Shown one piece after another: positions 10,648 through 62,370 of a stretch of DNA of 64,000 bases. The translations under genes were made by a program, and so were the position numbers. Below the pieces are notes generated by a model. The model did no database searches and was not told the origin of the DNA. It saw only the letters and a program-made list of their open reading frames with translations. This DNA comes from Naegleria gruberi. Lineage: Eukaryota. The DNA is taken from the NCBI GenBank assembly GCA_000004985.1, contig GG738859.1. The stretch is one strand, 5' to 3'. Numbering within the stretch: the first letter of the stretch is position 1; the number at the start of each line of letters is the position of its first letter.

Positions 10648-12048
10648 TTATTCTTCTTTTACTTCCTCTTTCTTTTGCTTTTTCTTTTTTGGCTTGTTTT
10701 CTTTTTGTAATTGGGCTCTAACCTCCAATGTCTTACTGAAAGTTTCCTTGTTCAGTTCGATGAAAGGTTGTTGGGATTCCTTCATTACATGTTGCATCAC
10801 CCTCAATGAATCATCACTTGCACCCATACTTCTTCTCTTCTTCAATTCCATTCTCTTTCTTTCTTTTGCTAATTTCTTTTTCTTTGGAGCATTACCGTGA
10901 TATTTGTGTGAGAATTCTCTGTAGGCCTCCTTTGGTGTCAATGAATTACCATGTCGGTCCAAGTGTTCAATTACAAAATCAGCCTCATCATCATATCCAA
11001 GAGCAGTCGGTTTAAGTCTTTCTTCAATGTGAGATCTATCCTTACTTCTACCAACTCTTTTATCCTCCAAAAACCCTTGTAAACTAGCAAACTCAATGGT
11101 GGCAAGTAGGCCATCCGAAACGAGAGGTTCTTTGACTAAGTTTTCAGGTTGAATTATATCTTTCTTTACATCCTCTTCCTCTTTGATTTCTTGTTTTACA
11201 TCCAATATTTCACTATTAGTATTATCAGCATCCACATCCATGTTTACATTGTTTTCCTCATCTTTTGATCTAACTGAAACATTCTTTCTTTTTCTCTTAT
11301 TAATAGTTGCATCTTGAGGCTCTGTTTTTACATTTTCTACAGCTAGGGTTTTTACAAAGTGTTTTGTAGAGTCAAATATTTTTCCAGATATGTTCAAATT
11401 ATCCTCATCTACAAGCATTTTATCAGATCCATGAAGCACCATAGATTCTTCTTGTGCTTTATCAATGGCTTCTTGATAGGTTCTATCTTTTTCCTTTTCT
11501 TCCAATAGATTTTTCTCTTCTCTCTTAGTAAGTCTATTTTCAGATCTTTTTGCCAAGTGGATTTCATCAATTGATGAATTCATTTCCATTAGCTGAAGTA
11601 AATCATCCGTTACACCAATTTGTGATGTTTTTTCCTTCACTCGAATATTCTTAACTTTCTTTTTCTTTAAAGCCTCAAAATCTGAAGCTATTGCTGGTTT
11701 TGATGATGAAAGATCATAAACTTTAGCATTTGGTCTATGTAATTCTTCCTCTTCCTCTTCAAAAGCTAATATTTTCTTTTTTTGCTCCTTTTTTAATTTT
11801 TCTTTTGCTTCTTGATTTTCATCATCAGAATCAATTCCTTGTTTTCTTTTAAATTCTCTTTCTTTTCGTTTTATCTTTGCTAATTCTATTCTTTTTTGTA
11901 TTTCCGAAGCTTCATCTTCCTTCTGATCTACTATTACAGTATTTTTTGTATCATTTCCGACCTTGAGAGGTTTTAATCCGAGTTTTATTCTTTGTTCGTT
12001 TGTTTCCTCGATTGTCAGGAAGAAACTTCCATCACTTGCAATGTGCAT
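10648..12048 (-). CDS. SART1: U4/U6.U5 tri-snRNP-associated protein 1 (SART1/Snu66 family)
   Basis: This is a 466-aa K/E-rich ORF. FFLTIEETNEQRIKLGLKPLKV matches human SART1 LSIEETNKLRAKLGLKPLEV. The C-terminus GNSLTPKEAYREFSHKYHGNAPKKKKLAKERKRMELKKRRSMGASDDSLRVMQH matches [57 protein letters not shown]. Its stop is 11 bp from the lipase stop. Confidence 0.8.
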   Translation of the reverse strand: MHIASDGSFFLTIEETNEQRIKLGLKPLKVGNDTKNTVIVDQKEDEASEIQKRIELAKIKRKEREFKRKQGIDSDDENQEAKEKLKKEQKKKILAFEEEEEELHRPNAKVYDLSSSKPAIASDFEALKKKKVKNIRVKEKTSQIGVTDDLLQLMEMNSSIDEIHLAKRSENRLTKREEKNLLEEKEKDRTYQEAIDKAQEESMVLHGSDKMLVDEDNLNISGKIFDSTKHFVKTLAVENVKTEPQDATINKRKRKNVSVRSKDEENNVNMDVDADNTNSEILDVKQEIKEEEDVKKDIIQPENLVKEPLVSDGLLATIEFASLQGFLEDKRVGRSKDRSHIEERLKPTALGYDDEADFVIEHLDRHGNSLTPKEAYREFSHKYHGNAPKKKKLAKERKRMELKKRRSMGASDDSLRVMQHVMKESQQPFIELNKETFSKTLEVRAQLQKENKPKKKKQKKEEVKEE

Positions 12049-12221: not shown

Positions 12222-12308
12222 CCGATGATAGCTCAGCTGGTAGAGCATGGGACTGTAGCAAGAAAAACTGTCATCCTGTGGTCGGCGGTTCGATTCCGTC
12301 TCATCGGA
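12222..12308 (+). tRNA. tRNA-Tyr (anticodon GTA) with a 14-nt intron
   Basis: The cloverleaf is read directly from the sequence. The acceptor stem is CCGATGA/TCATCGG, the D-arm is GCTCAGCTGGTAGAGC, the anticodon loop is CTGTAG|A with GTA at positions 34-36, and the T-arm is GGCGGTTCGATTCCGTC. The intron CAAGAAAAACTGTC at 12259..12272 sits at the canonical 37/38 position. The 5' half is nearly identical to human tRNA-Tyr (…TAGCTCAGCTGGTAGAGC…GACTGTAG). Confidence 0.85.
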
Positions 12309-15474: not shown

Positions 15475-16710
15475 ATGAAAACATTCAAATTCGACCCACA
15501 AACTCAAGAATGGAAGAGTTACTCAAAAATTGAAGAGTTCAATCAAGTTCCATCCTCATTTCTTTCAATTGATAAATTGACAAGGGAATTTGGATTGAAA
15601 ATTGGCACATTTAATGTGTTATTTGATTTGGTTCCTTTCTTTTTACAATCAATATTGAGAGCAAAAGAAAGGCATATTCATACCATTGAATTATTGAAAA
15701 GAGAAAATTTTGACATTATCATTTTGAATGAAGTTACTGGAAGATTTTTAAATTTAATTGAAAATGATGAATTTTTCAAGAGCGAATATTACTTTAGTGA
15801 TATTATGGAGAGAGATGGTGATGTGAAAAGTGAATTAACTGTGAATAAGAGCATTGGAAAGAGAATGGGAAATCTTGTCTTGTCCAAATTTGCTCCAGAT
15901 TTTACTGAAATGGAGGGTATTAATAAGAGTAGAGCTTTTATTTATAGTTCATTCACTCCTGTGGATGGAAATGGAAGAAGAATTGAAGAAGAAAGGATTG
16001 GTATTGTGGCAACCCATACAAGTGCCTTTACTCATAATGATCAAGTTAGAAAGCAAGAATTGACTAGATTGGTAAATTCTGAACTATTGAAAAATGTTAA
16101 AAATGTTGTAGTTTTAGGAGATTTAAATCTGCATGAAGAACACGAGGATAGGACAATTGAAGCAATTAATTGTAGAGATTTATGGACAGAAACTAGAAGC
16201 AATGGTCTATTTCGTGGATATACATTCGATTCTCTCAATAATTCACTCATTCAAATGCTATTTTTGAATTTTGAAAAGAGAAGAATGCGATTGGACAGAA
16301 TTATTGTAAACTCCTCAAGTTTATTAGGTTGTAATTCTAAAGTTGAGTTGTTTGGGCATGAACCAATTTCAACATATAGAAAACAAGGGTTGACCACAAC
16401 GAACCTACAAACTCCATTGTGGTTTACTTTATTGAGACAATTAGGAATTATTGATTGCAAAACAGACGACTATTTATTCTGCTCTGACCATTTCGGTCTT
16501 AAAACCTCACTAGTTCTTTGTAGCTCAGCCCAAGATTTAAAGAATCTATCTACAGAAATCAAAAATCAAGATGAAACATCAATGAATGAATACAAGGAGG
16601 ACAGTTATGAAAGTGCAAACAAATTCAAATATTCCATCAACTATTTGAGATTGACTCTCTCAATGGTTGTTTTGATTTTAATGGTTGGTTATGGAATTTC
16701 AAAACTGTAA
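15475..16710 (+). CDS. EEP-superfamily phosphodiesterase (TDP2/neutral-sphingomyelinase-like) with a C-terminal TM anchor
   Basis: This is a 411-aa ORF. It has the N-terminal …IGTFNVLFD… motif, the …VVLGDLNLHEEHED… motif and the C-terminal …FCSDHFGLKTSLVL motif that are characteristic of the Mg-dependent EEP nuclease/phosphatase fold. The hydrophobic tail is LTLSMVVLILMVGYGI. Its stop is 3 bp from the stop of the convergent RGS gene. Confidence 0.65.
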   Translation: MKTFKFDPQTQEWKSYSKIEEFNQVPSSFLSIDKLTREFGLKIGTFNVLFDLVPFFLQSILRAKERHIHTIELLKRENFDIIILNEVTGRFLNLIENDEFFKSEYYFSDIMERDGDVKSELTVNKSIGKRMGNLVLSKFAPDFTEMEGINKSRAFIYSSFTPVDGNGRRIEEERIGIVATHTSAFTHNDQVRKQELTRLVNSELLKNVKNVVVLGDLNLHEEHEDRTIEAINCRDLWTETRSNGLFRGYTFDSLNNSLIQMLFLNFEKRRMRLDRIIVNSSSLLGCNSKVELFGHEPISTYRKQGLTTTNLQTPLWFTLLRQLGIIDCKTDDYLFCSDHFGLKTSLVLCSSAQDLKNLSTEIKNQDETSMNEYKEDSYESANKFKYSINYLRLTLSMVVLILMVGYGISKL

Positions 16711-16713
16711 ATT

Positions 16714-18453
16714 TTATTCCTTTTTGAAAACTGTTGATTTTCTCTTTTCTCTATTCGATTTGGACCATTCCAAATACCAAGATCTGTTTGGATATAATTT
16801 TTGATTATCTCTCCATGCCTTATCATAACACTGATCATCCACACTATCTGAAAGTTGTAATTTTTTAGTTCCACCCTCAGTCAATTCATTCATTAGTTTG
16901 TCCATTTTAGTATAAATATCCTTCGTTCTCTTTTTCCAAAACATTTCCAGAATAAGATTAGAATTGTACTTGAAATTAGCATCTCCATACATGACATGCA
17001 CCAATCTGGTCATGTTATCATACATTTTATAGAAAATGTAATAAGACAATGCAAAAGCATCAATTCCATTTTCTTGCCTTGGTAATTCGTCCTGTGAAAA
17101 ATCTCCAGTGTGCATCACGTACATGTACATATCATTGAATGGATCCTTAATCGTTGTTCCAGTCATACAGAAATACCTCTTTTTCACAAACGGAAGTTTG
17201 TAATCCAATCCACTTGTAAGTAATTGGAGGGCATACATTGGTTTGTCAACTGAATTCTCTTTCAGACCTTCTTCACATGGTGGAACATATTTATGTAACT
17301 GGTAATCAGTGTGAGCTTGTGGATCAAACTTGATATGATTATCTCCATGAACCCACATTGCCCAAACATCATCAAATGAATAGGGTAAATACATGACTGA
17401 TTTGAAGAGTTGCATTCCTTTCAGTCTACTCGATGAGAATACGTATGGGGTTTTAGAACAGTATGATTGATAGAGTTTCTTATCTTGAATTAATTTCCAA
17501 TCTGGTGTATCTTCAGCCAATGTAAATCCTATTTTGTAATGAATTTTTTCAATTGAAAATTACAATATTACAAATAGTTCAATATATTAATAATATGGAA
17601 AATAAAACTTACCAAAGTAAATATGATTATCAGAAACTGTCTTATCCATCAAATCGTTTGGTTTAAATCTCAAATCAACATTGACTCCCTTTGAAGAATC
17701 AATAGCAATGGTTCTTGTGAAATTTTCACCCTTTTCTTTTAAAAAGTTCAATAAGAATTGACTTCTCACAAATCTTGGAAATTGATCCATTTTCAAATCC
17801 ATATGAACAGTCAACTCAACTTCATTAAATAATTTCTGATAATCCAACAGTTCAATAATTTCACTACAAAGTGGATACAAATTTGATTCATTGGAATCTA
17901 ATGATCCTTCCTGTGATGAATTAGATGATTCAGTATCATTAATTGAAACTGAAGATGCACTCTTTCCTAGAGTTTCCTTTTCTGATATTAATTTTGTAAA
18001 ATTTTCAAACTTTTCTTGAATTTTTTCATGTTTACCCAACAATTCTCTCTGTATATGACCAATATTTAATTCCTTCTCTGATGATGGTTTAATATAAATA
18101 TTAAATATCGAATTTGACTTGTCTGTTATACGTCTCAGTTGTTTAGTTACTTTTTTTAGTTGTGATTTCTTCTTGAAAGTTGTTGGACGAGAAAATTCTG
18201 TTATGGATGATGTGGAATCACTGTTATTTAGTGTGTCATTCTCTAGCTTGAGTATTTCCATTATTTCGGCAATGGATTTATCATATTCTTTCTTATAATA
18301 TTCCAATTCGTCTAGGAATAGGATAGTTTCATCACTTAAGCTTGTGTTTGTCAAGTATTTTCTAAAACATTCTCTGGATTCCTTTGATTCTATCATCTCT
18401 TCATAGACAACAGAATAATTACGAGGATCAAATGATGCTGTTTTTGCCGGCAT
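16714..18453 (-). CDS. RGS-domain protein with a C-terminal START/Bet-v1-like domain (tentative)
   Basis: There are two exons, 18453..17613 and 17528..16714. The intron is 17529..17612, 84 nt, GTAAGT…AAATAG, and joins …NHIYFG to FTLAEDTPDW…. The RGS-like block is SRECFRKYLTNTSLSDETILFLDELEYYKKE. The first in-frame ATG is at 18453 (MPAKTAS…), while the ORF-track start is a TTG. Assignment of the C-terminal half is tentative. Confidence 0.6.
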
Positions 18454-22250: not shown

Positions 22251-23945
22251 ATGCGAATTGTTATTGGCTTTGAAATTGGCGTTTTAAGGCCATTGCTTGA
22301 AGTACCCGAGTTGATGGGGTGTGTTTTTGAATATTTGGATTGTTCATCACTGATTACTCTTACAATGACAAGTAAACAATTTTTCGGTTTGCATGAACCA
22401 ATTCAAACTGCAACAATAAGCAACACTTCCTCCGAAGATGAAAAACAAGACGAAAATTCATCATCAATTAATAATAATGATGTTAGCTTATTATTAGATG
22501 TAAATTTGTGGAGATATTTGTTACATTTCTATGAAAAATCTAATGAGAAATTAACTAAATATCAATACGTTTATAATTTTAAGGAATCAATTTGGGGTGC
22601 GAGAGAACGTTCATTTACTAAATACTGTAAAAGTACTTGGTATGAAGTTAATCAATCAAGAAAGGAAATGGATTTAATATTCAAAGAAGATTTATTGGAA
22701 AAGCATAAAATTATTAAGGAAATTATTGAGAAACTCAAGAAATTGTATCCAATATTTAAATTAGCATCAACTCAGATGAATTATATTTTTGATATTGATA
22801 GAAATGGAAGAGCTGCTTGTAGATATAAGCATTGCAAGAGTCATCAATCACTCTCTCAAAATAATGTAAGAGGTAAAACTGTTGAAATTGGTTGCACTAG
22901 TTGGGACGGAGTTTATCACGTTGAGTGTTTTATAGAGTTATTGCACGATAAACATGTGAATGTTGGAGGCATTCAATTTGATTGTGCTATTAATACTAAA
23001 GAGCTGAGAAAAATTTTGTGGAATGCAAAGAATTCAAGATATCGTGTCTATACGTGCGATTCTTGTAATAATATACTCAACCATAAAGTAATATATGGTA
23101 TCAATAATTCAACGACGAAACAAGTAACCTCTCATTACTGCCAAACATGTCTCCCTCAAACCAATTCAAAAAGTATATTCAAATTTGAAAACCAGGTCCT
23201 TCTCAATTGCTCCATTTGCAAGAATAGAGTACAAGACGTACTATTTTGTTGCAAGTGTTGTGAAAATACTTTCATTTGTGGATCGTGTATCTCAAATTTT
23301 ATGTGGGGAAAACACAAACTACACCAGTTTCAAACTGTTGGAAGGTCTACAGAGAAGTATTTAGAGTATTTTGAGTATCTCAAAGAAAGAGAAGAGTCTC
23401 CAGATGAATTAGCTACAACAGAAGTAATTGAAAAAGTTGTTAAGGATTATCAAGATCTAAAATTCCCAAAACCAGAGAAAATTAAAAACCCAATTAAGCC
23501 AAAGAAAAAGAAGCAAAAGACTACACGTAAAAACTCTAAAAAAGAAAGTGAACCATCATCTTCCACTTGTTCAGAAATGGCATCAGTAGAGATTCAAAAT
23601 GAATCAAAATGTGCAGATGAATGCGTAACGCAAGATGATGTGAAAGAAATTTCAAAGAAAGATGAAATTCCACCGGTTATTATCGATCTCTCCAGTCAAT
23701 CTTCCACCAAAGAAGAAACAGTTGACTCTGATTCAATGAGTGATCAGGATGATGATGTCTACCAAGTTGAAAAACTGTTACAATGCAAAACTATTCGTAA
23801 GAAGAAATATTATCTAATCAAATGGAAGGGATATCCAGAGAGTGACAATTCCTGGGAGCCAACAGAAAATATTTCCTCAGACCTTATTGAATCTTTCAAC
23901 AAGGAAAAATCTACCAAAACAAATTCCTCCAAAAGAAAACGATAA
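22251..23945 (+). CDS. F-box-like / cysteine-rich zinc-finger / C-terminal chromodomain protein
   Basis: This is a 564-aa ORF. The N-terminus (VPELMGCVFEYLDCSSLITLTMTSKQF) resembles an F-box. The middle has about 30 Cys/His arranged in CxxC/CxxH pairs. The C-terminus is a canonical chromodomain, VYQVEKLLQCKTIRKKKYYLIKWKGYPESDNSWEPTENI. Its stop is 12 bp from the stop of the convergent ABC gene. Confidence 0.65.
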   Translation: MRIVIGFEIGVLRPLLEVPELMGCVFEYLDCSSLITLTMTSKQFFGLHEPIQTATISNTSSEDEKQDENSSSINNNDVSLLLDVNLWRYLLHFYEKSNEKLTKYQYVYNFKESIWGARERSFTKYCKSTWYEVNQSRKEMDLIFKEDLLEKHKIIKEIIEKLKKLYPIFKLASTQMNYIFDIDRNGRAACRYKHCKSHQSLSQNNVRGKTVEIGCTSWDGVYHVECFIELLHDKHVNVGGIQFDCAINTKELRKILWNAKNSRYRVYTCDSCNNILNHKVIYGINNSTTKQVTSHYCQTCLPQTNSKSIFKFENQVLLNCSICKNRVQDVLFCCKCCENTFICGSCISNFMWGKHKLHQFQTVGRSTEKYLEYFEYLKEREESPDELATTEVIEKVVKDYQDLKFPKPEKIKNPIKPKKKKQKTTRKNSKKESEPSSSTCSEMASVEIQNESKCADECVTQDDVKEISKKDEIPPVIIDLSSQSSTKEETVDSDSMSDQDDDVYQVEKLLQCKTIRKKKYYLIKWKGYPESDNSWEPTENISSDLIESFNKEKSTKTNSSKRKR

Positions 23946-23957
23946 TTTACAAATAAT

Positions 23958-26149
23958 TTATTGAAGAACATCCAACGTTACCTCCAAATCCTGTTCATGA
24001 GAGAAGAGCATTTGTTTTTGAGCAAGATTCATGTAAATTCCATTTGGAATTTTCATCAACTCTTCGTGTGTTCCCGTCTCTTTCAAAACTCCCTTTGCCA
24101 ACACACAAATCTTATCAGAATTTCTAACAGTGGATAATCTGTGAGCAATGCAAATGGTTGTTCTTCCCTTCATTAACAAATCCAAAGCAGCTTGAACGAG
24201 AGCTTCAGATTCAGTATCCAATGCAGAGGTAGCTTCATCCAATAAAAGAATCTTTGGATTTTGTAATAAGGCACGAGCAATACAGACACGTTGCTTTTGA
24301 CCACCTGAGAGTGAAACACCACGTTCACCCAATAATGTATTGTACCCTTCTGGAAGATCCATGATGAAACTGTGACAGTTGGCTGATTTGGCAGCTTCAA
24401 TAACTTGTTCCATTGATGTGTTTTCTTCACCAATTGCATATGCAATATTCTTGTAAATAGTAGTTGCAAACACTGTAAAATGTTAATTTCCTTAAATTCC
24501 AATATTATGAAACAACTTACAAATAGGTTCTATATGAAAATATTAGAAACAATTCGAAACAAAATTAGCAACACTTACCTTGTGTAACAATTCCAAGATT
24601 TCTATGTAACCACATTGGATCCAATTCAGCCAAATCAACTCCATCCAAGTAGACTTTACCACTTGCTGGTTCATAAAATCTTTCCAACAAACCTACAATG
24701 GTTGATTTACCAGAACCTGATGGACCAACCAAAGCAGCAGCTTCACCTGCCTTAATATCCAAACTGAAATTCTTCAATACAGTCACATTTGGACGTGATG
24801 GATAAATAAAATCAACATTTGCAAAGGTTACGTTTCCAATAATTTTTTCAAGTGTTTTACCTCCTTGGAATGGAATGGCTGCCTTTCTCTTTAAGATTTT
24901 CAAAACTGTCTTTTGAGAAACCATAGCTTTAGTATAATCTGGGAAGAAACCACCAGTTCCTGAAATACCCATAATGGCAAAGAGTGAGAGACCAAAGATT
25001 TTCATCATACTTCCAATATTCATCTTTGATTCAACAACTAAACCTCCACCAAACTATGTTACATTATTAGAAACTCAATAAGAAATTACTAATAACTACT
25101 TACCCAGAAAGCTAAAGCAGCAGTTCCCCACAAAATAGCTGTCAATAATCCAAACGTAGCTCCCAAAGAAAATGACTTTCCAATACCAGCCAAATACATC
25201 TTTCTAACATCTCTCTTATATCTTGATCTTTCCTTTTCTTCACCAGCCATTGATCTAACTGTTCTCATACATGATGTTACCTCAGTAGCAATTGCAGCAC
25301 TGTGATCATTGGCTTTGTTAATCTTCAAAGTGAGCTTTCTAATAATTCCTCCAAGAACAACAACACCCAATACCATGAGAGGAGTGGTAGAAATCATAAC
25401 AAGAGCCATTTCCCATCCAGTTGTCAAAGCCAAAACAACACCAACAATGAATTGTGTCATGTTTTGGAAGAGAGTTGCCAATTTGACTGTGTAAATTTCC
25501 TGAATTCTACTAATATCCTCAGATAGAGTAATGGTAAGACTTCCAACCTTCTTAATATCAAAGAAACCCATTTCTTGAGTGGTGAGTGAATCAAAATAGG
25601 CACCTCTCAAAGCTACACCAATTCTTTCACTTGCCCAATTCAAGAAGAATTGAGACATGAAATTGGCAATGGCAGAACCTGCAGCAATAATGGCAAATTG
25701 ACCTGCATAGGTTGAAATGAGAGATTTTTGCTCAGCGACAGTAATTGCAGTACCATCAGCTTTTGTTGGTGAAAAGACATTAACTAAATCACCCATAACA
25801 AATTGGAAACTGAATTAACATGAGTATAATAATAATGGACATTTTGAACAGTAAATTAACACATGCGTTCTGAATAAACTTACCTGATTGGAATAACACC
25901 ACTTCCCATAGCTCCAATTGTTCCCAATAGAATAATAATCCAATTAATACCAATAATCTTATAAATTGTGAATGCATCATGGAATTTCAAATCTGGTTCT
26001 CTAACATCATGAATTTGCTCATCTCCACCACTTTGAGCTTGTTGTTTCTGTTGGTCAGCATCCTTCTTCTTGAATGGATTTCTTGATTTTCTTTGAGTTT
26101 GATCAGCTTGATTAGATGAAATCTCAACCTCAATTTTATCTTGGGTCAT
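23958..26149 (-). CDS. ABCB: ABC transporter, ABCB-type half transporter (TMD-NBD), about 653 aa
   Basis: There are four exons: 26149..25884, 25809..25104, 25053..24579 and 24472..23958. The introns are 25810..25883 (74 nt), 25054..25103 (50 nt) and 24473..24578 (106 nt), all GTAAGT…YAG with consistent phases. The NBD has Walker [10 protein letters not shown], the Q-loop IVTQ|VFATT, the signature [15 protein letters not shown], Walker [13 protein letters not shown] and the H-loop CIAHRLST. A six-helix TMD lies upstream. Confidence 0.85.
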
Positions 26150-26591: not shown

Positions 26592-26885
26592 ATGAGAGTA
26601 TTTAAAGTTGATAGTCCATATGATGCTGATTTGAAAATTCTTCGTGTGATCAGTGATTATGATGCCGATTGTGCTGTAAAATGGGTTGATAGTATTTATG
26701 ATGATACAACCGAATTGTTGTGGTATCATGTTGGATCCCGTTTTGATGATGCTATTAAAATTTTTTATGTCGATAGTGCCTACGATTGTGATATTAAGAT
26801 CAAATTTGTTGATTCACTGTATGATGCTAGATGGTTTACCGAAGATAAGAAGAACCTTTTGAAGAATAATGCACCAACTTATTAA
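26592..26885 (+). CDS. Small 97-aa protein built from six tandem 13-residue repeats, consensus VDSxYDxDxKIxF; no recognisable family
   Basis: The sequence is MRVFK-VDSPYDADLKILR-VISDYDADCAVKW-VDSIYDDTTELLW-YHVGSRFDDAIKIFY-VDSAYDCDIKIKF-VDSLYDARWF-TEDKK…. The DNA repeats are about 39 nt long and have diverged at synonymous and codon-family level while the peptide motif is kept; for example Ser is encoded by both AGT and TCA and Tyr by both TAT and TAC. That pattern argues for selection on the protein. The ATG sits in an A-rich context. Confidence 0.45.
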   Translation: MRVFKVDSPYDADLKILRVISDYDADCAVKWVDSIYDDTTELLWYHVGSRFDDAIKIFYVDSAYDCDIKIKFVDSLYDARWFTEDKKNLLKNNAPTY

Positions 26886-26912
26886 ATAATTTTGTATTTT
26901 ACTCTCTTAGAT

Positions 26913-29090
26913 TTATTCTTTCAATTTGCCCTGTTTGAATTCAAGCAAAATATCCTTGACAGTAATGACACCATCCTTGTCGGCATCAATTCTGTCAATA
27001 ATTTCCTTTATCAATTCTTCTGATGGTTTTTCTTTCAAAACACTGAGAGCTTGTTTAAGTTCTTCAACTGTAATAACACCATCCTTATCCTTATCCAAAA
27101 GATTAAGAGAATCAGCAATAGATTGATCAACATAATCAATATCCTTTTCAATCTTTTCAATCAATTTACCAACTCTGTTACTAAGTCTACTAATCTTGAC
27201 AACAGGATCTTGTCCTTTAGTTTGGTCAACAATATCAATATGATCACTGATTAAATCTTCCAATTCTTCTCTTTCAGGTTCCACTGAACTTCTTGAAGCC
27301 AAAGTAGCAAGAATTTCATTAAGAATTCTAATCTTTTCTTCCTTAGCTTTCTTAACTTCTTCCTTTTCAAATTCAGGATCAAGAGCAACTTTTGGTGCTT
27401 CTGGAGCAGTTTCAACTGGAGTTTGTTTAGATTCAGTTGTTGTTGATGGAGTAGCTGGAGTTGAGCTTGTTAATTCTTCCTTCAAGACGAATTTCTTCTT
27501 TTCCTCTTCTTCAGTCTTAATTAACTTTTCGGTACGTTTCAGTGAAGCAAGTTTCTTTTCATAATCTTGAGTTGGAGAAGTTTGCATACCGACTTCATCG
27601 ACAACTTCATCTGAAAGAGAACCAAGAGCCATCTTGATAGCTTCCTCACTTTGTACCTTATCATTGAAAACAAAAGCACGAGATATAATAAGTAATGATG
27701 ATGGAATATTCTTATCAAATGATAATTCAATCCATTCTCTCAATTGTTTTTGAAGTTCCTTCTTTGATACTCCAATTTTCATACCTCTTTCCTTACAGGC
27801 ATACATAAGCTCTTCATTTGAAAGAGAGTTAACACCTTCCCAATAAATTAAACGATCATCAGCCTTCAATCTTCTCATCTTTGATCTCAATCTGTATCTA
27901 AGAATTGCATCAGATCCGTATGGCGTAATACCCATATATTTACACATAGCAACAAGTTGTGCTCTTGACATGTGATCCAAAGTAATTTCATCTTTGAAAA
28001 GTTTAGCAAATTTAACAATATCATCATTAGAACAACTTTCACCATTTCTAATCTTTTCAATAAAATTATTCAATTCCTCGGATTGAGCAGCTGTTTCAGT
28101 AGATTCACTGCTTCTCAAATCTTGTACCATCAATTCAACTGTATCTTGTAAGAATTTAGCAAGTTCAACTTTAGCTTTAACTTCTTTCAATAATTTTTCC
28201 TTCTTTTTTAATCCATCTTCAAATTGTGATGGAAGCATATTTGGGAAGAGTTTCAACAGAACTGGTAAAGCAAATTCCAAGAATGGTACAACAACAATAA
28301 TTGCAAAAGGTACGAGACGGAAAATATCTGAAACTGTTCTCAAAAGTTGATTTCTTTCTCTTCTTGATAATGCATTACCTCTCAAAACTTTTGTTGTTAA
28401 AGCAAATGCATATCGTACGTCACTTGCTAATAATTTACTTCCTGCAACATAGTGTTTAATTTCATGAACAGTAACATCCCTAGCTTTAGCATACCAATCC
28501 TTCACAACAGTAGGTCTCATTATAACACTCTTAAGAGCATCAAAAAGAAATACTGTAACTTTCCAAGTAACACCAGGAATAGCTTTAACTATTGAGAGTG
28601 ATTTGTCCTTTGCAATTTGAACAACACTATCGGCATTCATTGGTGTAAGAAGTGATTTTGCTGTTGATGAATTCTTCATTCTTTCCTCGATTTTTTTCTT
28701 TGCTTCAAGTATTCTTTGATTTTGATTATTATCATTATCGGAGGAAGGTGGGACATTATTTAAATTAATAATGTTTGTATGATAAGAAGCTATTTTGTTG
28801 CTCCACAAATTATTATTGTTAAGCAGAGAAGATCCAATATGAGAACTAAATATATTAATTAATAGAAGAAAATCAAATACCTACTTCGATATCGAAGAAA
28901 AGATAGGCTTTGAATTTATCAATCTTGACGAAGAAGAAAAATTTAGTCCAGAATTATTTTTCATCATCATATGACCACTACCAATGGTCATTGATAAGGC
29001 GGTATTGTGGTGATTTAAAACATTCGAACTGTGAGAAAGCAACTTTGATACTGTACAAAGAGCGTGTCGCGAAGTGAGAGTACTCTTCAT
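26913..29090 (-). CDS. LETM1: LETM1-family mitochondrial inner-membrane protein with C-terminal EF-hands
   Basis: Exon 1 is 29090..28885 and encodes a presequence-like MKSTLTSRHALCTVSK…SKPIFSSIS. The intron is 28846..28884, 39 nt, GTAGGT…TTTAG. Exon 2 is 28845..26913. The LETM1 core is …RLKADDRLIYWEGVNSLSNEELMYACKERGMKIGVSKKELQKQLREWIELS…. It has one TM helix and two EF-hand loops, DKDKDGVITVEEL and DADKDGVITVKDI. Confidence 0.8.
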
Positions 29091-29200
29091 TTTTTAAAGC
29101 GATTTTTAAATTTTGATTAACGTTAATGATTTTGCTTTTTGCTGTGTGGCAATCAATTAAAATAAATATTCTGTAAATTGTCTTGTTGGGACTTTTAAAA

Positions 29201-31896: not shown

Positions 31897-34179
31897 ATGA
31901 GCCATGATGACAATTCAAATGCTGTCGATACACAACAACAGAACGATCATCAAAATCTTCCAACCACAACAATAACAAACGACGAAAATAACAATTTTGA
32001 AAGTGTTACAACACTTAATAATAATAGTTTGGACTCGAATCAAAATTTTTCATATTCCGATAACACAAAATCCGATATTTTAGGTTTATTTGATGATGAT
32101 GATGATGAAGAGGATGATGATTATCAGGATTTGAACGAAGATGAAGATATAGAATTGGAAAATTTTGATTGGATCGATTGGGATGATATGATACTGCCTG
32201 ATGATGAGTTTGATGGTAGTTCTAGTCAAGCTAAACGAGGAAGGAAGAAATATCAAAAGTTTGAAAAACCATCAGTTTTACCTAGTATACGACCCAAAAG
32301 TCCAACAAAGCAGACAACAGCTAGCTCAAACTCTGTAAATATGTTAAACAATGTACAAATACCATCACAACCTTACCAATTTCCATTTCCACAGATTATG
32401 GCACCTCAATTATTTCCACAAAGTGGTGCAACTAAGAATTTCAACCAATTTCCAATAGTTCCTTCTACGATATTTCCAACATATGACCTGATGTTCTCTA
32501 GAGGAGTTAATTTGCCAAATGCATCAACAAGTAGTAATGTTGTGGCATCTTCATCTAATGCATCTGTTCCAACTCAATCAAGCCCATCAAGTCCTCCTTC
32601 TTCCTCTAATAATTCAATATCCAGTATATTCTCATCCCAAAGTGTAATATCAGATGAGCAAATGAAGGAATTGCAATATCAAATTCAAACACATACTCAA
32701 TTACTGTTTTATAACTATTTCCTATCAAGTTTTAATCAAGAATTAAAGGAATTGAACAAGAAATTCAAAAATCTCATCACTTCCTATTTAGTTATCAAGA
32801 AAGAGGCTGTAAATAACAAAATGAGAAAATTATTATATTTATTTAATGTTTCTAAAGACGTTAAAATTGTAAATTTATTAGATGGATCAAAGAAGGTTAC
32901 TCTAACCGAAAATTCATTCACTCCAAACGAAAGAAACGAAGAAAGAAATGTTGAAGAATGGATTGAACTGCTTACTACCTCAATACTGGATGTGGAAGGA
33001 ATTGATTCAATGGATATATTTATTGATTTTGACTATTCTTTCTTTTATATCAACAATCAAATTAATTGGGAATTATTTGTAAAATTTTTAAAACCTTTCA
33101 AGTTATTTTCAAATCAAAGCTTGTTAGCAGAAATACAGGAGAGTATTTACTACTTGAATACAACTGCAGAAAGAGGAATAGGATCTAAAAGAATGGTTTT
33201 TACAATACCTGAGGATAATTTACTCTTGATTGGCCTTAAAAAACATTGGAAACCTGGAACAACAATTAAGTGGGAAAGAATCAGAGATGAGTTCGTTCCA
33301 AACAAGTCATCGAAACAACTAAGAGTCAGATATAAAAATATGATAGGGAAAAGAGCAGCATCTCTAGAGTTTAATCCTTTCAAAACGTTCAGAACTATTG
33401 CAGAAGAAACAAACCAACAACATGAAGGTAGTGGTAGTACCAAAAAGAAAGATGATAGTCAAGTAGATTATTCATATTTATTCGAGTCAATCAAACTTTT
33501 TAAAATAACAAGCAAATTAACAAGGAAAGAGATTCCAGTAAGTTACAAAGACCTAAGCAAAATACACACCTATGTACCTAGAGATAATATTTCTGAATCA
33601 GAGTCAGATTTGGACCAAACAAAAGATACAGGCGAAAAGAAGAGAAAGAAGAATGAAAAAATCAATCCAAAGAAAAAGAAGAAACAAGATACAGAGGATA
33701 TAACATCCCTTGAAAATAATTTATTAACCACAGAAAAGATAGACCAAATAGTAGCAGTTCAACCACAAGTAGAAATTCCACCTATTATTGAAAATCCAAT
33801 AATTGAACAACCAATTAATCCATTGAATGAAAGTAGTCTCAGTGAAGTATTTTTGAAGCCTGATTTGGAGTTATCCACTTCAAAGATACTACCATTCGAA
33901 GATGTTGGATCGATTGACTCATCTTCTGATGAAGAAGATAATGTACATCATGTAGAAAAGGATTCTGAGATTATTCATGATGGAATAGTACACAAATTTA
34001 CATATGAGGACGATAGGCATATTTTGGTTACTCTTCAAACTAAGGGTCTTCAAATTGGAACGTTGATTGTTGGTGATGAATTTGATAGTGTTTTACTTGA
34101 TATTGCTAAGGAATTGAGTAGATCAAAACAAGTTATCAAAGCAAGATACAATAAGATTATCTCAATTAATAAGAAATAA
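31897..34179 (+). CDS. N/S-rich nuclear protein with a Myb/SANT-like domain
   Basis: The ORF is counted from its first ATG, which is in frame with the ORF-track start at 31834. It has an acidic DDDDDEEDDD tract and a SANT-like block FTIPEDNLLLIGLKKHWKPGTTIKWERIRDEFVPNKSSKQLRVRYKNM. Its stop is 13 bp from the stop of the convergent ULK4 gene. Confidence 0.55.
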   Translation: MSHDDNSNAVDTQQQNDHQNLPTTTITNDENNNFESVTTLNNNSLDSNQNFSYSDNTKSDILGLFDDDDDEEDDDYQDLNEDEDIELENFDWIDWDDMILPDDEFDGSSSQAKRGRKKYQKFEKPSVLPSIRPKSPTKQTTASSNSVNMLNNVQIPSQPYQFPFPQIMAPQLFPQSGATKNFNQFPIVPSTIFPTYDLMFSRGVNLPNASTSSNVVASSSNASVPTQSSPSSPPSSSNNSISSIFSSQSVISDEQMKELQYQIQTHTQLLFYNYFLSSFNQELKELNKKFKNLITSYLVIKKEAVNNKMRKLLYLFNVSKDVKIVNLLDGSKKVTLTENSFTPNERNEERNVEEWIELLTTSILDVEGIDSMDIFIDFDYSFFYINNQINWELFVKFLKPFKLFSNQSLLAEIQESIYYLNTTAERGIGSKRMVFTIPEDNLLLIGLKKHWKPGTTIKWERIRDEFVPNKSSKQLRVRYKNMIGKRAASLEFNPFKTFRTIAEETNQQHEGSGSTKKKDDSQVDYSYLFESIKLFKITSKLTRKEIPVSYKDLSKIHTYVPRDNISESESDLDQTKDTGEKKRKKNEKINPKKKKKQDTEDITSLENNLLTTEKIDQIVAVQPQVEIPPIIENPIIEQPINPLNESSLSEVFLKPDLELSTSKILPFEDVGSIDSSSDEEDNVHHVEKDSEIIHDGIVHKFTYEDDRHILVTLQTKGLQIGTLIVGDEFDSVLLDIAKELSRSKQVIKARYNKIISINKK

Positions 34180-34192
34180 ATTGATAAATATT

Positions 34193-37100
34193 TTATTCAG
34201 CTAATAACTTTTTGATTGATGTTGCAAGAGTAAGTAGTGATTGATTTCCAATATCTGAGACTTTGTTGACTGCAACCATCAACATGTCTTCTCGTTTCAG
34301 TTTTGCTATCATCTTGGAATTACTTTGGCAAATAATTAGCAAAATGTTAAGCATATAATTACAAATTCTAGTCACACTCTCATCAATTTCATTAGTTTCC
34401 TCGAATGAATTTACATGATTGAGAAGAATTTTACGGATGAGTCCCAAAACTTGTTGTGAAAATAATTGTTCATGAGTTGAGGAATATTGTTGAGCCAATA
34501 GGAGAACAACATGACATGCTGACTCAGCTATGGTTAAATCTTCATGAGAACAGAGTTTCATGAAAACTTGAAGGTTGTCAACCAATGCTTCATTGTTTTG
34601 AACCAATGTTTCAGCTGCTTGTTTAGAGTCATCTCCCTTATTCTTTGAAGAATGAACAAGTTTTGCTGCCTTATATAAAAGATTGTCGACTATACCTAAA
34701 CAAGGTTCAAAGAAAGTATCTACACCATTTTCAAAGGCGTACTTCAAAACAGCACTCAATTTTGTGATTATACCAAGCTTGAAGAGTTGATCTGAAGTCA
34801 AAACTTCTGCATTTACAACCTTCAAAATCAATCTAACATTGTGTACGTTGTTATTTCTATGTTCTAACTCGAAGAATTCAAACAGCTTTGGAATTATATT
34901 AAAGTGGTGAATAACACCAATGAAGCCTGGGTTGTGTTCAGCAATGTTATTCAATAACTTTAATCCATACAATGGAATAGGGTCTTGATCATCCAGTATT
35001 TGTTTGTACTTTGGCAAAACATTCTTTACGATGAAATCATTAATTTGTTTTGTACACTCGTGGTTAGGATCTTCAATACTATAAACATTCTTATCATTCA
35101 AGAATTGAACAAGAATATCAGTGAAAATCTTCAAACACAAGAATCTCACATCACCATTAGAATTATTGAGCATATCTACTAATGATGGTAACAAAGAATT
35201 AACAACAACTTTGTGGAAGGAAGCAGTGGTTGGCTGTCTTGAAAGGGCTTCAATAACCAAAAGTATAGAGTTGGAAGATTCTTCAGTACCTGACTTGGAT
35301 CCTAATTGAGTCAAAAGTTTTGATAGTTGGAGCAAAACGTTCTCTGTTATCATCTTTTCGCTCAGGGAAGGGGTAGTCATTACGAGCAAAACAAATTCAA
35401 GAGTCTTGTTTTGATTTGCTGCAGATGTTGATGTCATACCCTTATCAAGTTGTTGGGAGACTTGTTGAAGAAGGGTTGGAATCATTTCAGCAATACTATC
35501 AAGAACTCCAGCCATACATGTCTTGACATATTGTTCCTTCTCTTTGTTCATCATTCTATCCAAGCAAGCACATAGCTTTGGACCGAAATTCTTCACGATA
35601 AATGTTGGATTGCTCTTTGAGATGATGAAATATGTAATAAGAGCCTTAGCTCTGATTGTATAATTAGAGTGATCAACTAAAGAGGATAAGCTTTCTTCAA
35701 ATGCTGGATCTTCTATTAATTGTTTGCATTGCTTAGTGTTGCTATCAGTCAAAATTGCAAGATTAATAATATTGACTGCAGATTGTTGAACTCTAATATT
35801 ACTGTCCTTTAAAAGAGCAGCAATTTTCTTTGGCGTTATTAAATCAATAAGTTGTGAAGAAAGATTGGACTTATTTCTTGACATTCTAGAAAGTGATGAG
35901 ATAGCACTTCCTCTCAAGAATTCATTCTTACTGGTATTGAAAATTTGGAGAAGGGAAGAGATACAATCAATTGTGGCAAACTTTTGAGAGTATTGAGGAC
36001 TTTGGGCAGCAATATTTTCAATTGTTTTTGTGGCATAATGTTGAACAACTTCATCAGCATACTTAAGACTTTCAACAACTGTACTAACAATTGATACAGG
36101 TAAATCAACAAGGGTGATTTCCTTTTGATTTTGGGAAGGAATCTGTGTAGCAACATAGAACACCAATTCTCCTAAGCAGGCCAGTGCTCTTCTCTTTACC
36201 TTTACACCATTGTCCTTCATGACAAGTTCTACAAAGACGTCGAATATTTCATTATTAAGGAGATCTCCGGAAATGTATGTTGCATGTCTTACCAAAAGAC
36301 CAGTAACAGAACATAATCTAACTCTGAGCATTGGAGACTTGTAAGCTCTTAGCATTTTAATGAACAACTTCATCAAGGAGCTGTTAACAAGCAAGTTAGA
36401 TGATTGGGTATCTGTGCAAAGTGTTTCAAAATAGCACAAACAATTCAATTTCATAGTATTGTCTCCATTTCCTCCAAGAGCTTTGTAAATTTGAGTAAGG
36501 AATCCTTCCAGCTCTTTTTGAGGCATGTTTAAAACCTTCTTGAGAGGATGAGGTTCAAAAGGAAGTTTAGTTTTGTCGAACTTTGGACTAGTAACTTTTT
36601 CAATTCTGGAGTTCATGATAATTGGTTTGACATAGGTGTCGGATTGGTTGAACATTAATTTTTGAACTTCTTGGATGGAAAGTTTGATGTTAGCGATATT
36701 TGATTGGGAGGTAGATCTTCTGATCATTGGTTCTCCAGTTGGTTCCTTAGAACTATTTCCTCTTGTTTCTGAGGAATCACTAAAACCTTGTTCTTCGTCA
36801 TCTAACTCTGCCTTCTCTTTAGAAAGTTCATCACCACTATCTCCATCGGATTCATCGAAATTATATTCAATATCTGTGACTTTCTTAGTGGATGGTTTTT
36901 CTGAAGATCTTCCATCATAACTAGGACCCAACTCTTTTTCAAGATTGGATTGGACAATCTTTGAAAGTCTCATTACATTCTCGCTTTTTGAGGTTTTTTG
37001 GGAAGAAACAACCTTAACACTATTCAGATAAACAGGAGAAGGAGCTAAATATTTTCTTAATTCTTCTGGAGGTGGTGCTGCCTTTTCTCTCCAAAATTTG

Positions 37101-59133: not shown

Positions 59134-60090
59134 ATGGAATACAAACTCTCTCGTGAAACTTATGATTTGTATTGCTCTCTGTTGAGTAGTGCTGTAAAGA
59201 GTCATCGTTCTGGGAGTATTCTCACTCCATTTCCTATGTATTTTATGAAGAATTCAAAGAAGGATTTTGATCATTTGAAGAAGACCTTGTCCGAGATGCC
59301 TCAATCAGATCAATTATTTAAAAAACAAAATGAAATGATTTTTAGTGATATGAATAATAATTTAGTAGAGAAAATTCGGGAATGGATTGAAACCAATTGG
59401 AAAGATAAATATGAGGAATGTAATTTGGACGATATTGTTGCCTTGATGGAATTTATTATGAAGAAACAATCAAATAAGAAGTTTTCTGTTCATTATATTT
59501 CATACCAGGAGTATTTGAAAAAAAATCCAAAATTATTGATGAAACCAGATCATATATTTGAATTGAAATATAATAGTGATGAATTTGATAGGAAGAGTAA
59601 TGATTTTTATACAGGTTTTCATGGAAGCTCAATTGAAAATTTCTTTTCAATCATTACAAATTCGTTACAAAATTATTCTGATACTGAGCTAATGAGAACT
59701 GGAAATGCCTTTGGAAATGGAATTTATTTATGTGAAGATGTGAGAGTGGCAAGAGATTTTTCGAAAGGAGCTGTTATTGATTGGAAAAATACAACACTTG
59801 GAAGTTATTTATCTGCAGTTGTTCAATGTAAAGTAGTGGGTAAACCACATTATGCACTAAAGGGTCAACAAGAATCAAACGAAAAGAATAGATATTTGAT
59901 TGTAAATAGAAGCGAAGATGTTAGAATTCAATATGTTTTATTATTTTCCCATTTCAAAAATGAAAAAGAATTAGAAAGCTCAAGAAAGTTTTCCTATGGT
60001 ATGATCTATGTCTATATTATTCTCTTACTTGCTCTAATAATAGGAAATTATTGGAAGGATATCAAGAGAGAATTAAAGAGATATAATTAA
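59134..60090 (+). CDS. PARP16: PARP16-like mono-ADP-ribosyltransferase with a C-terminal tail-anchor TM
   Basis: The ORF is counted from its ATG, because the ORF-track start is a GTG. YTGFHGSSIENFFSIITNSLQ matches PARP16 LFHGSRLENFHSIIHNGLH. GNGIYLCEDVRVARDFS matches GEGTYLTSDLSLALIYS. RYLIVNRSEDVRIQYVLLFS matches [20 protein letters not shown]. The C-terminal hydrophobic anchor is GMIYVYIILLLALIIGNYW. Confidence 0.7.
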   Translation: MEYKLSRETYDLYCSLLSSAVKSHRSGSILTPFPMYFMKNSKKDFDHLKKTLSEMPQSDQLFKKQNEMIFSDMNNNLVEKIREWIETNWKDKYEECNLDDIVALMEFIMKKQSNKKFSVHYISYQEYLKKNPKLLMKPDHIFELKYNSDEFDRKSNDFYTGFHGSSIENFFSIITNSLQNYSDTELMRTGNAFGNGIYLCEDVRVARDFSKGAVIDWKNTTLGSYLSAVVQCKVVGKPHYALKGQQESNEKNRYLIVNRSEDVRIQYVLLFSHFKNEKELESSRKFSYGMIYVYIILLLALIIGNYWKDIKRELKRYN

Positions 60091-60651
60091 TTACTTGTTA
60101 TTTTCACTTTCCCTTAGTTCAACAATTTTGTTTCGTTCAGTGACAATTTCCTCCCACAATTTCTTGTTTTCTCTTTGTCTCTTTCTTTCTCCTCTCTCCA
60201 GAGCCCTCTTAAAAGGTGGTGAATCTTCCTTTAAGTATTCAACACACCAGAGAGCTGAATAATAGGCAATAACAGCCAGTATTGGATATAAAATTAATTT
60301 TTCATACCATTCAAAATCTGCTTTTGATTCTGCAAGTTTGACATATTCCTCATACTTTTTATCAATTACCTTCTTTTTCTTTTCAAATAATTCATAATCA
60401 AAATTTTTATCATTCTTTAATTCTTGTAAATCCAATTTTTTAATTTGCTGAATATCACTTCCTTCCTTTTCCTTGACATCGTTATTATTTTGATTTTCCA
60501 ATTTAATATTACTATAAAATGTTCTCTGTATCAGTGTTGCTGTATTATTAGTATTAATAATTGTTCCATTGATTTTATTGCTTCGGAGGAGTGGCACCAA
60601 GATGTTTCTTATTGTTGATGGTGAAGAGAGTTGTGATCGTAACTTGAACAT
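60091..60651 (-). CDS. Hypothetical mitochondrial-targeted single-pass membrane protein
   Basis: This is a 186-aa ORF with an ATG start. The N-terminus (MFKLRSQLSSPSTIRNILVPLLRSNK…) looks like a mitochondrial presequence. There is one TM helix (LILYPILAVIAYYSALWCV) and a K/E/R-rich C-terminus. Its stop codon directly abuts the PARP16-like stop with zero intergenic bases. Confidence 0.45.
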   Translation of the reverse strand: MFKLRSQLSSPSTIRNILVPLLRSNKINGTIINTNNTATLIQRTFYSNIKLENQNNNDVKEKEGSDIQQIKKLDLQELKNDKNFDYELFEKKKKVIDKKYEEYVKLAESKADFEWYEKLILYPILAVIAYYSALWCVEYLKEDSPPFKRALERGERKRQRENKKLWEEIVTERNKIVELRESENNK

Positions 60652-61810: not shown

Positions 61811-62341
61811 ATGAAGTCAAGTATGCTCTTGCATAAATTGAAGGCAACCAGAAGTGGAGCCTCTTTGCTTTCCAGAAATTTTTCATCATCATCAATTTGC
61901 TCTTTCCACACTAATACTTTGAATTTGGAAAATAATACATTTAATAACAATCTTTCTCAACCAATAAATCGTTTGGAATGGAAGCAAGCAATTTTATCGG
62001 ACGGAACAGTGTTTTATAGTCATCCAACATGGGAAGAAGTTGTTGCTGAAAAACAAAGAAGAATTGAAATGGCTAAGAATAATACAACTAACGGAACACT
62101 TAATGCTGCTCAAATACAAGTTGTTAGACAATTACACGAACAAGACCCAGCAAAATATACTTCTGCAGTTTTAGCAGCAATGTTCCGTGTTAAACCAACT
62201 TATGTTGTACAAGTAATCGATAGAATGGCTGTTCAAAGTGACAGAGTTAAATGGCAGGCCAAGAAGGAAATTAGAGCACTCAAGAAGAAGAATCAAAATA
62301 GACCAAGAAGAGGTACTAAGGAATATAACGACAAATATTAA
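61811..62341 (+). CDS. NGRN: Neugrin/Rrg9-family mitochondrial protein (tentative)
   Basis: This is a 176-aa ORF with a presequence-like N-terminus (MKSSMLLHKLKATRSGASLLSRNFSSSS). AAQIQVVRQLHEQDPAKYTSAVLAAMFRVKPTYVVQVI resembles the neugrin core AMEQIRYLHEEFPESWSVPRLAEGFDVSTDVIRRVL. Confidence 0.5.
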   Translation: MKSSMLLHKLKATRSGASLLSRNFSSSSICSFHTNTLNLENNTFNNNLSQPINRLEWKQAILSDGTVFYSHPTWEEVVAEKQRRIEMAKNNTTNGTLNAAQIQVVRQLHEQDPAKYTSAVLAAMFRVKPTYVVQVIDRMAVQSDRVKWQAKKEIRALKKKNQNRPRRGTKEYNDKY

Positions 62342-62370
62342 ACTATACATTTACTTATGGATAATTATAC

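Follow-up and report, generated by a model that had tools for sequence, protein, structure and literature searches.

The window analysed, a 64,000-nt stretch of Naegleria gruberi NEG-M nuclear DNA, hosts six pairs of converging ORFs whose stop codons are nearly or fully in contact (Table 1). Three of its ORFs match NEG-M proteins exactly, all encoded by a single scaffold of 530 kb. At the focal junction a gene of the endonuclease/exonuclease/phosphatase (EEP) type faces a gene encoding an RGS-domain protein. All six junctions were found where an earlier note on this DNA had placed them, both in the ORF list and by direct reading of the sequence. That note spoke of five pairs while enumerating six, and assigned to the first a gap of 8 nt, which is in fact 7 nt. 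The stop codon is TAA in eleven of the twelve genes and TAG in NAEGRDRAFT_57566, where it is overlapped by the hexamer AGTAAA. The gene labels are borne out by Pfam (Exo_endo_phos, RGS, Lipase_3, SART-1, Chromo, ABC_tran, Myb, ULK4 HEAT plus kinase, ARTD15_N plus PARP). The gene preceding the first pair belongs to the glomulin family, and Pfam recognized no family in the small gene ending at 3528 or in NAEGRDRAFT_79150, the latter labelled a mitochondrial gene in the earlier note.

Table 1. Genes, convergent junctions and stop-overlapping poly(A) signals in the window
Feature	Position	Strand	Stop, spacer, stop	Remarks
EEP gene	15475..16710	+		411-aa ORF; Pfam PF03372; terminal hydrophobic tail anchor
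RGS-domain gene	16714..18453	-		551 aa; two exons; 84-nt GT..AG intron 17529-17612; Pfam RGS and splice model
EEP / RGS (focal junction)	16708..16716	+ / -	TAA 16708-16710, 3 nt, TAA 16714-16716	ORF ends 16710/16714
Small 4-exon gene (2952-3528) / NAEGRDRAFT_57566 (3536-4243)	3526..3538	+ / -	TAA, 7 nt, TAG	ORF ends 3528/3536
Class-3 lipase / SART-1	10634..10650	+ / -	TAA, 11 nt, TAA	ORF ends 10636/10648
Chromodomain gene / ABC ATPase	23943..23960	+ / -	TAA, 12 nt, TAA	ORF ends 23945/23958
Myb/SANT / ULK4	34175..34197	+ / -	TAA, 13 nt, TAA	ORF ends 34179/34193
PARP16-like / NAEGRDRAFT_79150	60088..60093	+ / -	TAA directly abutting TTA, 0 nt	ORF ends 60090/60091
DUF6150 / LETM1	26881..26917	+ / -	27-nt spacer	stops 26885/26913; codon-bias map
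MRP-L20-like / unnamed 499-aa ORF	62337..62373	+ / -	29-nt spacer	stops 62341/62371; codon-bias map
RGS dual-use AATAAA	16713..16718	-		contains RGS stop
ABC dual-use AATAAA	23957-23962	-
Myb dual-use AATAAA	34175-34180	+		inverted pair with next
ULK4 dual-use AATAAA	34192-34197	-		inverted pair with preceding
DUF6150 dual-use ATTAAA	26881-26886	+
LETM1 dual-use AATAAA	26912-26917	-
MRP-L20-like dual-use ATTAAA	62337-62342	+

A gene map of the whole window, approximate as built from codon bias, adds two tight pairs, in which three of the four genes are backed by Pfam, and three looser convergent gaps of 148, 235 and 312 nt. The tail-to-tail geometry of cis-natural antisense transcripts, 3' end to 3' end on opposite strands, is thus found at 0-13 nt in six pairs and at 27 and 29 nt in two more, and the gap is of 29 nt or less in 8 of the 11 convergent pairs. 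Coding sequences are shared at none of the eleven junctions, the smallest spacer being 0 nt. Median spacers in this one 64-kb window are 13 nt for convergent neighbours (n=11), 441 nt for tandem and 385 nt for divergent ones (one-sided Mann-Whitney p=8.7e-5), tandem and divergent distances being measured from first-ATG approximations of gene starts. The closeness of convergent genes exceeds chance. Convergent spacers are short in the relatives too: over loci annotated in N. fowleri, N. lovaniensis and Willaertia magna, the medians are 70 (convergent), 219 (tandem) and 689 nt (divergent). The convergent median of the window is smaller than that of 15 junctions in the three relatives (p=0.046); that N. 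gruberi is the tighter genome is suggestive only, as one window is set against annotations made by other groups.

[quoted passage not shown] In four of the twelve focal genes (RGS, ABC, Myb, ULK4) the stop codon is contained in AATAAA. Stop-overlapping AWTAAA motifs are found in 7 of the 16 tight-pair genes, once LETM1 (AATAAA), DUF6150 and the MRP-L20-like gene (both ATTAAA) are included. PARP16 carries ATTAAA 16 nt upstream of its stop; stop-overlapping copies excepted, AWTAAA is absent from the final 60 nt of coding sequence in the other eleven focal genes. The earlier note had stated that these junctions leave no room for separate poly(A) signals. This is not entirely correct, as signals can be accommodated, being built into the stop in four of twelve genes and set just before it, as AUUAAA, in PARP16. 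From the published distance, cleavage of the RGS transcript is predicted to occur about 15-20 nt beyond its signal, near 16692-16697, within the EEP coding sequence.

The other nine tight-pair genes have no stop-overlapping AWUAAA, nor any for 135-1792 nt downstream. The motif is missing within 890 nt downstream of EEP, and for lipase and SART-1 over more than 1.2 kb. These nine genes may use variant stop hexamers (UGUAAA, AGUAAA, AAUAAG, AAUAAU) or have long antisense tails. In line with a potent signal, the sense strand of the 46 kb of coding sequence in the window shows an approximately 8-fold depletion of AATAAA (6 observed vs 46+/-6 expected from codon shuffles), whereas the antisense strand shows none (68 observed vs 53+/-7 expected). 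Of the 32 stops in the window nine are embedded in AATAAA, a proportion exceeding the one published for the whole genome (binomial p=0.011, in a small sample). A specific enrichment of dual-use stops in tight pairs was considered and discarded, as 7 of 16 tight-pair genes vs 4 of 16 other window genes are too few for a difference.

With stops 0-13 nt apart and a 3' end about 20 nt downstream, the 3' end would have to fall in the coding sequence of the partner. We infer from the published UTR lengths and signal-to-cleavage distance that facing mRNAs almost certainly overlap tail to tail, and on these parameters the core proposal of the earlier note, that the transcripts of each pair overlap, stands (PMC11529991). 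The arrangement is real, and such overlap is an expected outcome of the very short 3' UTRs measured in N. gruberi. Compaction of 3'-3' spacers, combined with minimal 3'-end signals, is probably the explanation. Where two genes meet at their 3' ends, the spacer would have been squeezed nearly to nothing, while spacers bearing promoters would have stayed at a few hundred bases. The squeeze would be tolerated because 3'-end formation in N. gruberi plausibly requires very little private sequence, its main determinant probably being AAUAAA, often placed around the stop itself (AA-UAA-A), with cleavage some 15-20 nt later. Each mRNA of a 0-13-nt pair would end within the last codons of the partner, and its short 3' UTR would be the reverse complement of the partner's stop and C-terminal codons. 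Where both stops are dual-use, the mature mRNAs are predicted to share about 20-40 complementary bases; where no canonical signal is found near the stop, the shared stretch may be longer. RNA polymerase II would have to transcribe part of the partner gene before terminating. Interference, RNA duplexes or small RNAs may ensue, but the siRNA generation raised in the earlier note is speculative. In our view the arrangement results from compaction, neutral or under mild selection, and is not adapted to individual gene pairs.

The same AAUAAA around UAA seen in RGS, ABC, Myb and ULK4 has been described as a dual-use stop in the protists Giardia, Spironucleus and N. gruberi itself (PMC11529991). In the window, in contrast, such elements are face to face, and each predicted cleavage site lies in the coding sequence of the partner. 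Overlap between neighbouring genes is seemingly not treated in that study, the text of which contains neither 'antisense' nor 'neighboring' (PMC11529991). [quoted passage not shown] Yeast pairs are likewise tail-to-tail with complementary 3' ends, and their function has been tested. Overlaps in yeast seem to involve mostly non-coding spacers of tens to hundreds of bases. In the window spacers are all but absent, and any overlap would have to lie on coding sequence; moreover, RNAi is missing from S. cerevisiae, while candidate components of it are found in Naegleria.

Overlapping transcription was reportedly described by Williams et al. in PNAS in 2005 in the compacted genomes of microsporidia and nucleomorphs. 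There too intergenic DNA was lost until transcripts enter neighbouring genes, but those genomes are compacted everywhere, whereas in the window only 3'-3' spacers have collapsed, to the median of 13 nt, and promoter-bearing ones measure about 400 nt. N. gruberi is a free-living organism with a genome of about 41 Mb. Arabidopsis convergent pairs have long overlaps and sizeable UTRs. Similarly to what is proposed here, they use a common polyadenylation region, i.e. one shared zone for sense and antisense processing (PMC3032780); in N. gruberi, however, the zone would extend over no more than the two stop codons and a few further codons. A literature search found no earlier description of convergent overlap in Naegleria, which does not prove that none exists. 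Tail-to-tail overlap is already a familiar feature of yeast and of protists with compact genomes, and is no new category of biology.

Overlapping 3' ends might alternatively have been selected pair by pair as regulatory units, acting through polymerase collision, mRNA duplexes or natural-antisense siRNAs, to render the two genes mutually exclusive or co-regulated. We regard this as unlikely, though precedents are not lacking. The mRNAs of closely spaced convergent genes pair into duplexes in living yeast, and the orientation of these genes has been kept in evolution (PMC6993858), interference mediated by overlapping 3' UTRs has been observed in the same organism (PMC3900390), and candidate Dicer and Argonaute homologues are found in N. 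fowleri (PMC13315211). Judging from Pfam, however, the partners are functionally unrelated, and the overlaps predicted for dual-use pairs measure only about 30-40 nt. The dual-use stop of ULK4, GAA-TAA-A, is conserved in three species, a point in favour of such selection, but its convergent partner is Myb in N. gruberi, an S8 peptidase gene in N. fowleri and a PALP enzyme gene in Willaertia, with stop-to-stop gaps of 13, 27 and 5 nt, respectively. Since ULK4 abuts a different partner in each species and the gap is tiny each time, general compaction of 3' spacers is favoured over pair-specific regulation. The N. fowleri homologues of EEP and RGS sit on separate contigs, which also speaks against selection on that pair.

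It is similarly doubtful that tight junctions work as bidirectional 3'-end modules, in which inverted dual-use AAUAAA/stop elements are set face to face, as in Myb/ULK4, and the last codons of each gene are selected to supply the partner with a U-rich processing context and a cleavage site. C-termini would be partly shaped by the polyadenylation of the neighbour, and terminal duplexes would couple the fates of unrelated genes. Over their last 16 codons, tight-pair genes of the window are richer in A (0.466 vs 0.367, p=0.016), and the 50 nt following their stops are richer in T (0.48 vs 0.38, p=0.004), but the two figures measure the same bases. In N. fowleri, N. lovaniensis and Willaertia the A content of C-termini is 0.346 in 10 tight-pair genes vs 0.372 in 50 others (p=0.56). 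The effect was thus not replicated in relatives, and the supply of U-rich elements by A-rich partner C-termini is regarded as unconfirmed.

Compaction with overlap is also to be weighed against compaction without it. Cleavage might occur a few bases from the stop, directed by signals within coding sequences, leaving 3' UTRs of near-zero length; the ATTAAA of PARP16 could work in this way, and spacers of 11-13 nt allow about 6 nt per gene. This is very improbable, because PARP16 is alone among the focal genes in having such a signal separate from the stop, AATAAA is strongly avoided inside coding sequences, dual-use stops still give a median UTR of 22 nt in N. gruberi (PMC11529991), and at gaps of 0 and 3 nt any UTR covers the stop codon of the partner.

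Equally remote is the view that true transcripts do not abut, ORFs having been misread because of hidden terminal introns, or being pseudogenes or unexpressed. Introns do occur in N. gruberi genes (the one in RGS, three in the small gene with its stop at 3528), the C-termini of eight of the twelve genes were placed by ORF continuity and domain position, and the public annotation conflicts with the EEP ORF, since the NCBI model counts 292 aa. That model, however, lacks the hydrophobic tail anchor that relatives carry, which argues that it is the annotation that is wrong. The tail is common to N. fowleri, N. lovaniensis, one of two Willaertia homologues (P0069) and a metagenome homologue (P0064). 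RGS homologues stop 5-15 residues past a conserved NRSWYxEW motif, and so does the ORF in the window; the C-terminus of ULK4 is kept to the last residue in five species, and that of Myb can be aligned to its end with N. fowleri. Mis-called C-termini, the weak point envisaged in the earlier note, are therefore contradicted for all four stops compared with orthologues, out of twelve. Domains reach close to ORF ends (Chromo spans residues 504-551 of 564, DUF6150 extends to 92 of 99, EF-hands to 620 of 631), and in the codon-bias map every terminal ORF scores as coding.

Should the overlaps be borne out, a considerable fraction of the genes of N. gruberi would have 3' UTRs made of antisense coding sequence of the neighbour. 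Unstranded RNA-seq would misassign reads at junctions, and a tag or deletion introduced at a gene's 3' end would alter that of the partner. Being free-living and non-parasitic, with only 3'-3' spacers collapsed, the organism is a useful case for asking how little sequence 3'-end formation and termination may need. Gene finders and UTR callers forbidding overlap would truncate or drop genes. The consequences for annotation anticipated in the earlier note find some support in the truncated EEP model, and in ULK4 and the RGS gene, which have no 100% match among NCBI N. gruberi proteins and seem to be absent from the public set.

Exact-protein look-ups of window genes retrieved no RNA-derived contigs, only near-identical metagenome DNA contigs, and the N. 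fowleri contigs found in Logan and ENA are genomic and unspliced. Independently assembled metagenome contigs from a strain 99.6-99.8% identical carry the same EEP/RGS (3 nt; contig L010) and Myb/ULK4 (13 nt; contig L001) junctions. Compared base by base with L010, the EEP/RGS junction features zero differences across 16401-16843, and the underlying sequence at these junctions is sound.

All six tight convergent junctions claimed in the earlier note are present in the window, at exactly the positions claimed (see Table). The note spoke of five pairs while listing six, and its 8-bp gap at the first junction is actually 7 nt; the gene labels are borne out by Pfam. In a codon-bias map of the window, the 11 usable convergent junctions feature gaps of 0, 3, 7, 11, 12, 13, 27, 29, 148, 235 and 312 nt, against median spacers of approximately 441 nt for tandem and 385 nt for divergent pairs (Mann-Whitney versus convergent, p=8.7e-5). 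The collapse is thus confined to promoter-free spacers. The coding sequences of convergent pairs share no bases, the smallest spacer being 0 nt, and the pairs accordingly fall outside the class of overlapping coding sequences. Their geometry is that of cis-natural antisense pairs, with a predicted transcript overlap.

Convergent gene pairs with closely spaced stop codons in the window
Gene pair (strand)	End of stop, first gene	End of stop, second gene	Spacer (nt)
Small gene after glomulin-like gene (+) / NAEGRDRAFT_57566 (-)	3528	3536	7
Lipase (+) / SART-1 (-)	10636	10648	11
EEP (+) / RGS (-)	16710	16714	3
Chromodomain (+) / ABC (-)	23945	23958	12
Myb (+) / ULK4 (-)	34179	34193	13
PARP16-like (+) / NAEGRDRAFT_79150 (-)	60090	60091	0
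DUF6150 / LETM1 (extra pair)			27
MRP-L20-like / unnamed (extra pair)			29

The window comes from the nuclear genome of a free-living heterolobosean amoeba; its GC content is about 32%, and long ORFs are open in the standard code. Three of the ORFs match letter for letter the N. gruberi NEG-M proteins EFC46310, EFC46322 and EFC46323, all from one 530,355-nt scaffold, and identity of the ULK4-like ORF is 80% with its N. fowleri counterpart and 68% with the Willaertia magna protein. Metagenome contigs L001, L010 and L011 of ERZ929261 (ENA; run ERR1078381, PRJEB11402) are 99.6-99.8% identical to the N. gruberi scaffold, which points to a near-identical Naegleria strain in the sampled material. 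The same EEP/RGS and Myb/ULK4 junctions are found in these independent contigs, and region 16401-16843, spanning EEP/RGS, shows zero base differences.

Tight junctions could result from mis-called C-termini, the refutation set by the earlier note. The four stops compared with homologues (ULK4, Myb, EEP and RGS) all hold. The ULK4 C-terminus falls on the same residue across five species (...KKLLAE, KKLMAE, KKIVSE, NKLLNE, EKLKE), and the Myb alignment reaches to within four residues of the C-terminus in N. fowleri. EEP, an endonuclease/exonuclease/phosphatase, terminates in a hydrophobic tail anchor, a feature shared by the N. fowleri and N. lovaniensis homologues, by one of two in Willaertia (P0069) and by one from a metagenome. 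The RGS-domain gene, spliced over an 84-nt GT..AG intron, ends 15 residues past the conserved NRSWYxEW motif; nine homologues end 2 to about 10 residues past it, with the exception of one longer paralogue. For the remaining eight C-termini the basis is an uninterrupted ORF, the coding score and domains reaching near the ORF end. At the tight junctions the public annotation of N. gruberi seems to contain errors. The public EEP model has 292 aa and a spurious C-terminus, against the 411-aa ORF (15475-16710) with the conserved tail anchor, and no 100% NCBI protein match was returned for ULK4 (34193-37447) or the RGS gene (16714-18453).

Direct sequencing of N. gruberi mRNA has revealed a median 3' UTR of 39 nt, with UGUA serving as upstream element and a U-rich element following the signal. 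Dual-use stops, those overlapping AAUAAA, make up about 11-13% of all stop codons, and the UTRs of their genes measure 22 nt at the median (PMC11529991). The earlier note saw no room for separate poly(A) signals at the junctions, but signals fit by sharing the stop codon. The stop lies inside AATAAA in four of the 12 genes, RGS (gGAATAAAat), ABC (cAATAAAtt), Myb (aAATAAAtt) and ULK4 (gAATAAAat), and at Myb/ULK4 two signals stand face to face (AATAAA-N11-TTTATT). PARP16 carries ATTAAA 16 nt upstream of its own stop. For the remaining genes, the hexamer at the stop is no more than near-cognate (TGTAAA in EEP; AGTAAA, AATAAG and AATAAT elsewhere), and their first canonical AWTAAA (AATAAA or ATTAAA) lies 135-1792 nt downstream, 890 nt for EEP. 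Counting the two extra pairs and ATTAAA, dual-use genes are 7/16 in tight pairs versus 4/16 among the others, and enrichment is not demonstrable.

Across the 46 kb of coding sequence that the window contains, AATAAA occurs 6 times on the sense strand versus 46+/-6 expected from codon shuffles, an approximately 8-fold depletion that is consistent with AAUAAA acting as a strong signal here; ATTAAA is mildly depleted (41 versus 60). On the antisense strand AATAAA is not depleted, and is slightly over-represented (68 versus 53+/-7), so that a polymerase reading antisense into the partner gene would encounter canonical signals at a mean spacing of about 700 nt.

The tail-to-tail transcript overlap held necessary in the earlier note follows from the published N. 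gruberi parameters (PMC11529991), as a prediction rather than an observation. Cleavage would occur about 15-22 nt past a stop-embedded signal, and stops are only 0-13 nt apart; each mRNA should therefore finish within the last codons of its partner. The RGS mRNA is predicted to end near 16692-16697, in EEP coding sequence, and Myb and ULK4, both dual-use, would share about 31 complementary bases (22+22-13). In pairs lacking a canonical signal the overlap may be much longer. Polymerase collision, duplexes and small RNAs would be possible consequences. The last codons of tight-pair genes in the window are A-rich (Lys/Glu-rich), which would supply the partner with a U-rich downstream region (p=0.016 and p=0.004); the effect was not replicated in the relatives (p=0.56).

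Median spacers at loci annotated in N. fowleri, N. lovaniensis and Willaertia magna rank as convergent (70 nt), tandem (219 nt) and divergent (689 nt). Convergent spacers are the shortest in the window too, which looks tighter than the relatives, though only weakly so (p=0.046). The dual-use GAA-TAA-A stop of ULK4 is found in N. gruberi (34193-34197), N. fowleri (contig L002, 13804-13812) and Willaertia magna (contig L003, 13924-13932). ULK4 faces Myb at 13 nt in N. gruberi, a PALP enzyme at 5 nt in Willaertia magna and, in N. fowleri, an S8 peptidase at 27 nt, whose gene separates ULK4 from Myb. Partners differ and gaps are always tiny, hence tight packing is re-established once genes have been rearranged. 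Such a pattern argues for a general equilibrium of compaction, with 3' spacers devoid of private function, over conserved regulatory pairings.

Convergent mRNAs overlap tail to tail in microsporidia, nucleomorphs and Giardia. Such overlap is well documented in yeast, where it involves >20% of genes, with duplexes at short spacers (PMC3900390; PMC6993858), and is described in Arabidopsis as well (PMC3032780). Dual-use stops in N. gruberi are already known from a paper in whose text the words 'antisense' and 'neighboring' are absent (PMC11529991), and no description of convergent overlap was found in the Naegleria literature searched. What the window adds is the combination of tail-to-tail arrangement and dual-use stops, which brings facing coding sequences into contact in a genome not otherwise extremely compact; coding sequence is then where any overlap has to lie.

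Spacers 18517-19933, 28881-30023 and 41616-43414 (1.1-1.8 kb each) contrast with the near-zero 3'-3' spacers, and host no convincing ORF and no Rfam family. A tRNA of 87 nt, a size suggesting that it probably bears an intron, is located at 12222-12308 (+) in the divergent spacer that separates SART-1 from the gene after it (Rfam, 54.8 bits; not reported by ARAGORN). The stop of the glomulin-family gene, at 2933, is dual-use (AATAAA; region 2931-2954). The next gene on the same strand (2952-3528; four exons, 138 aa, no Pfam match) has its best start codon 18 nt downstream, and the 3' end of the glomulin-family mRNA would thus overlap its 5' end or promoter. Gene order is apparently common to N. 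fowleri L002 1-9795 and window 38066-58151. Pfam labels on L002 are ULK4, GatB, FPL/CLEC16A-like, WD40, RPS26e and dynein heavy chain; on the window side RPS26e alone has its own Pfam match, and the C-terminal residues of the WD40 gene are nearly identical in the two. Judged by position, the 3868-aa ORF at 46545-58151 is probably the dynein heavy chain.
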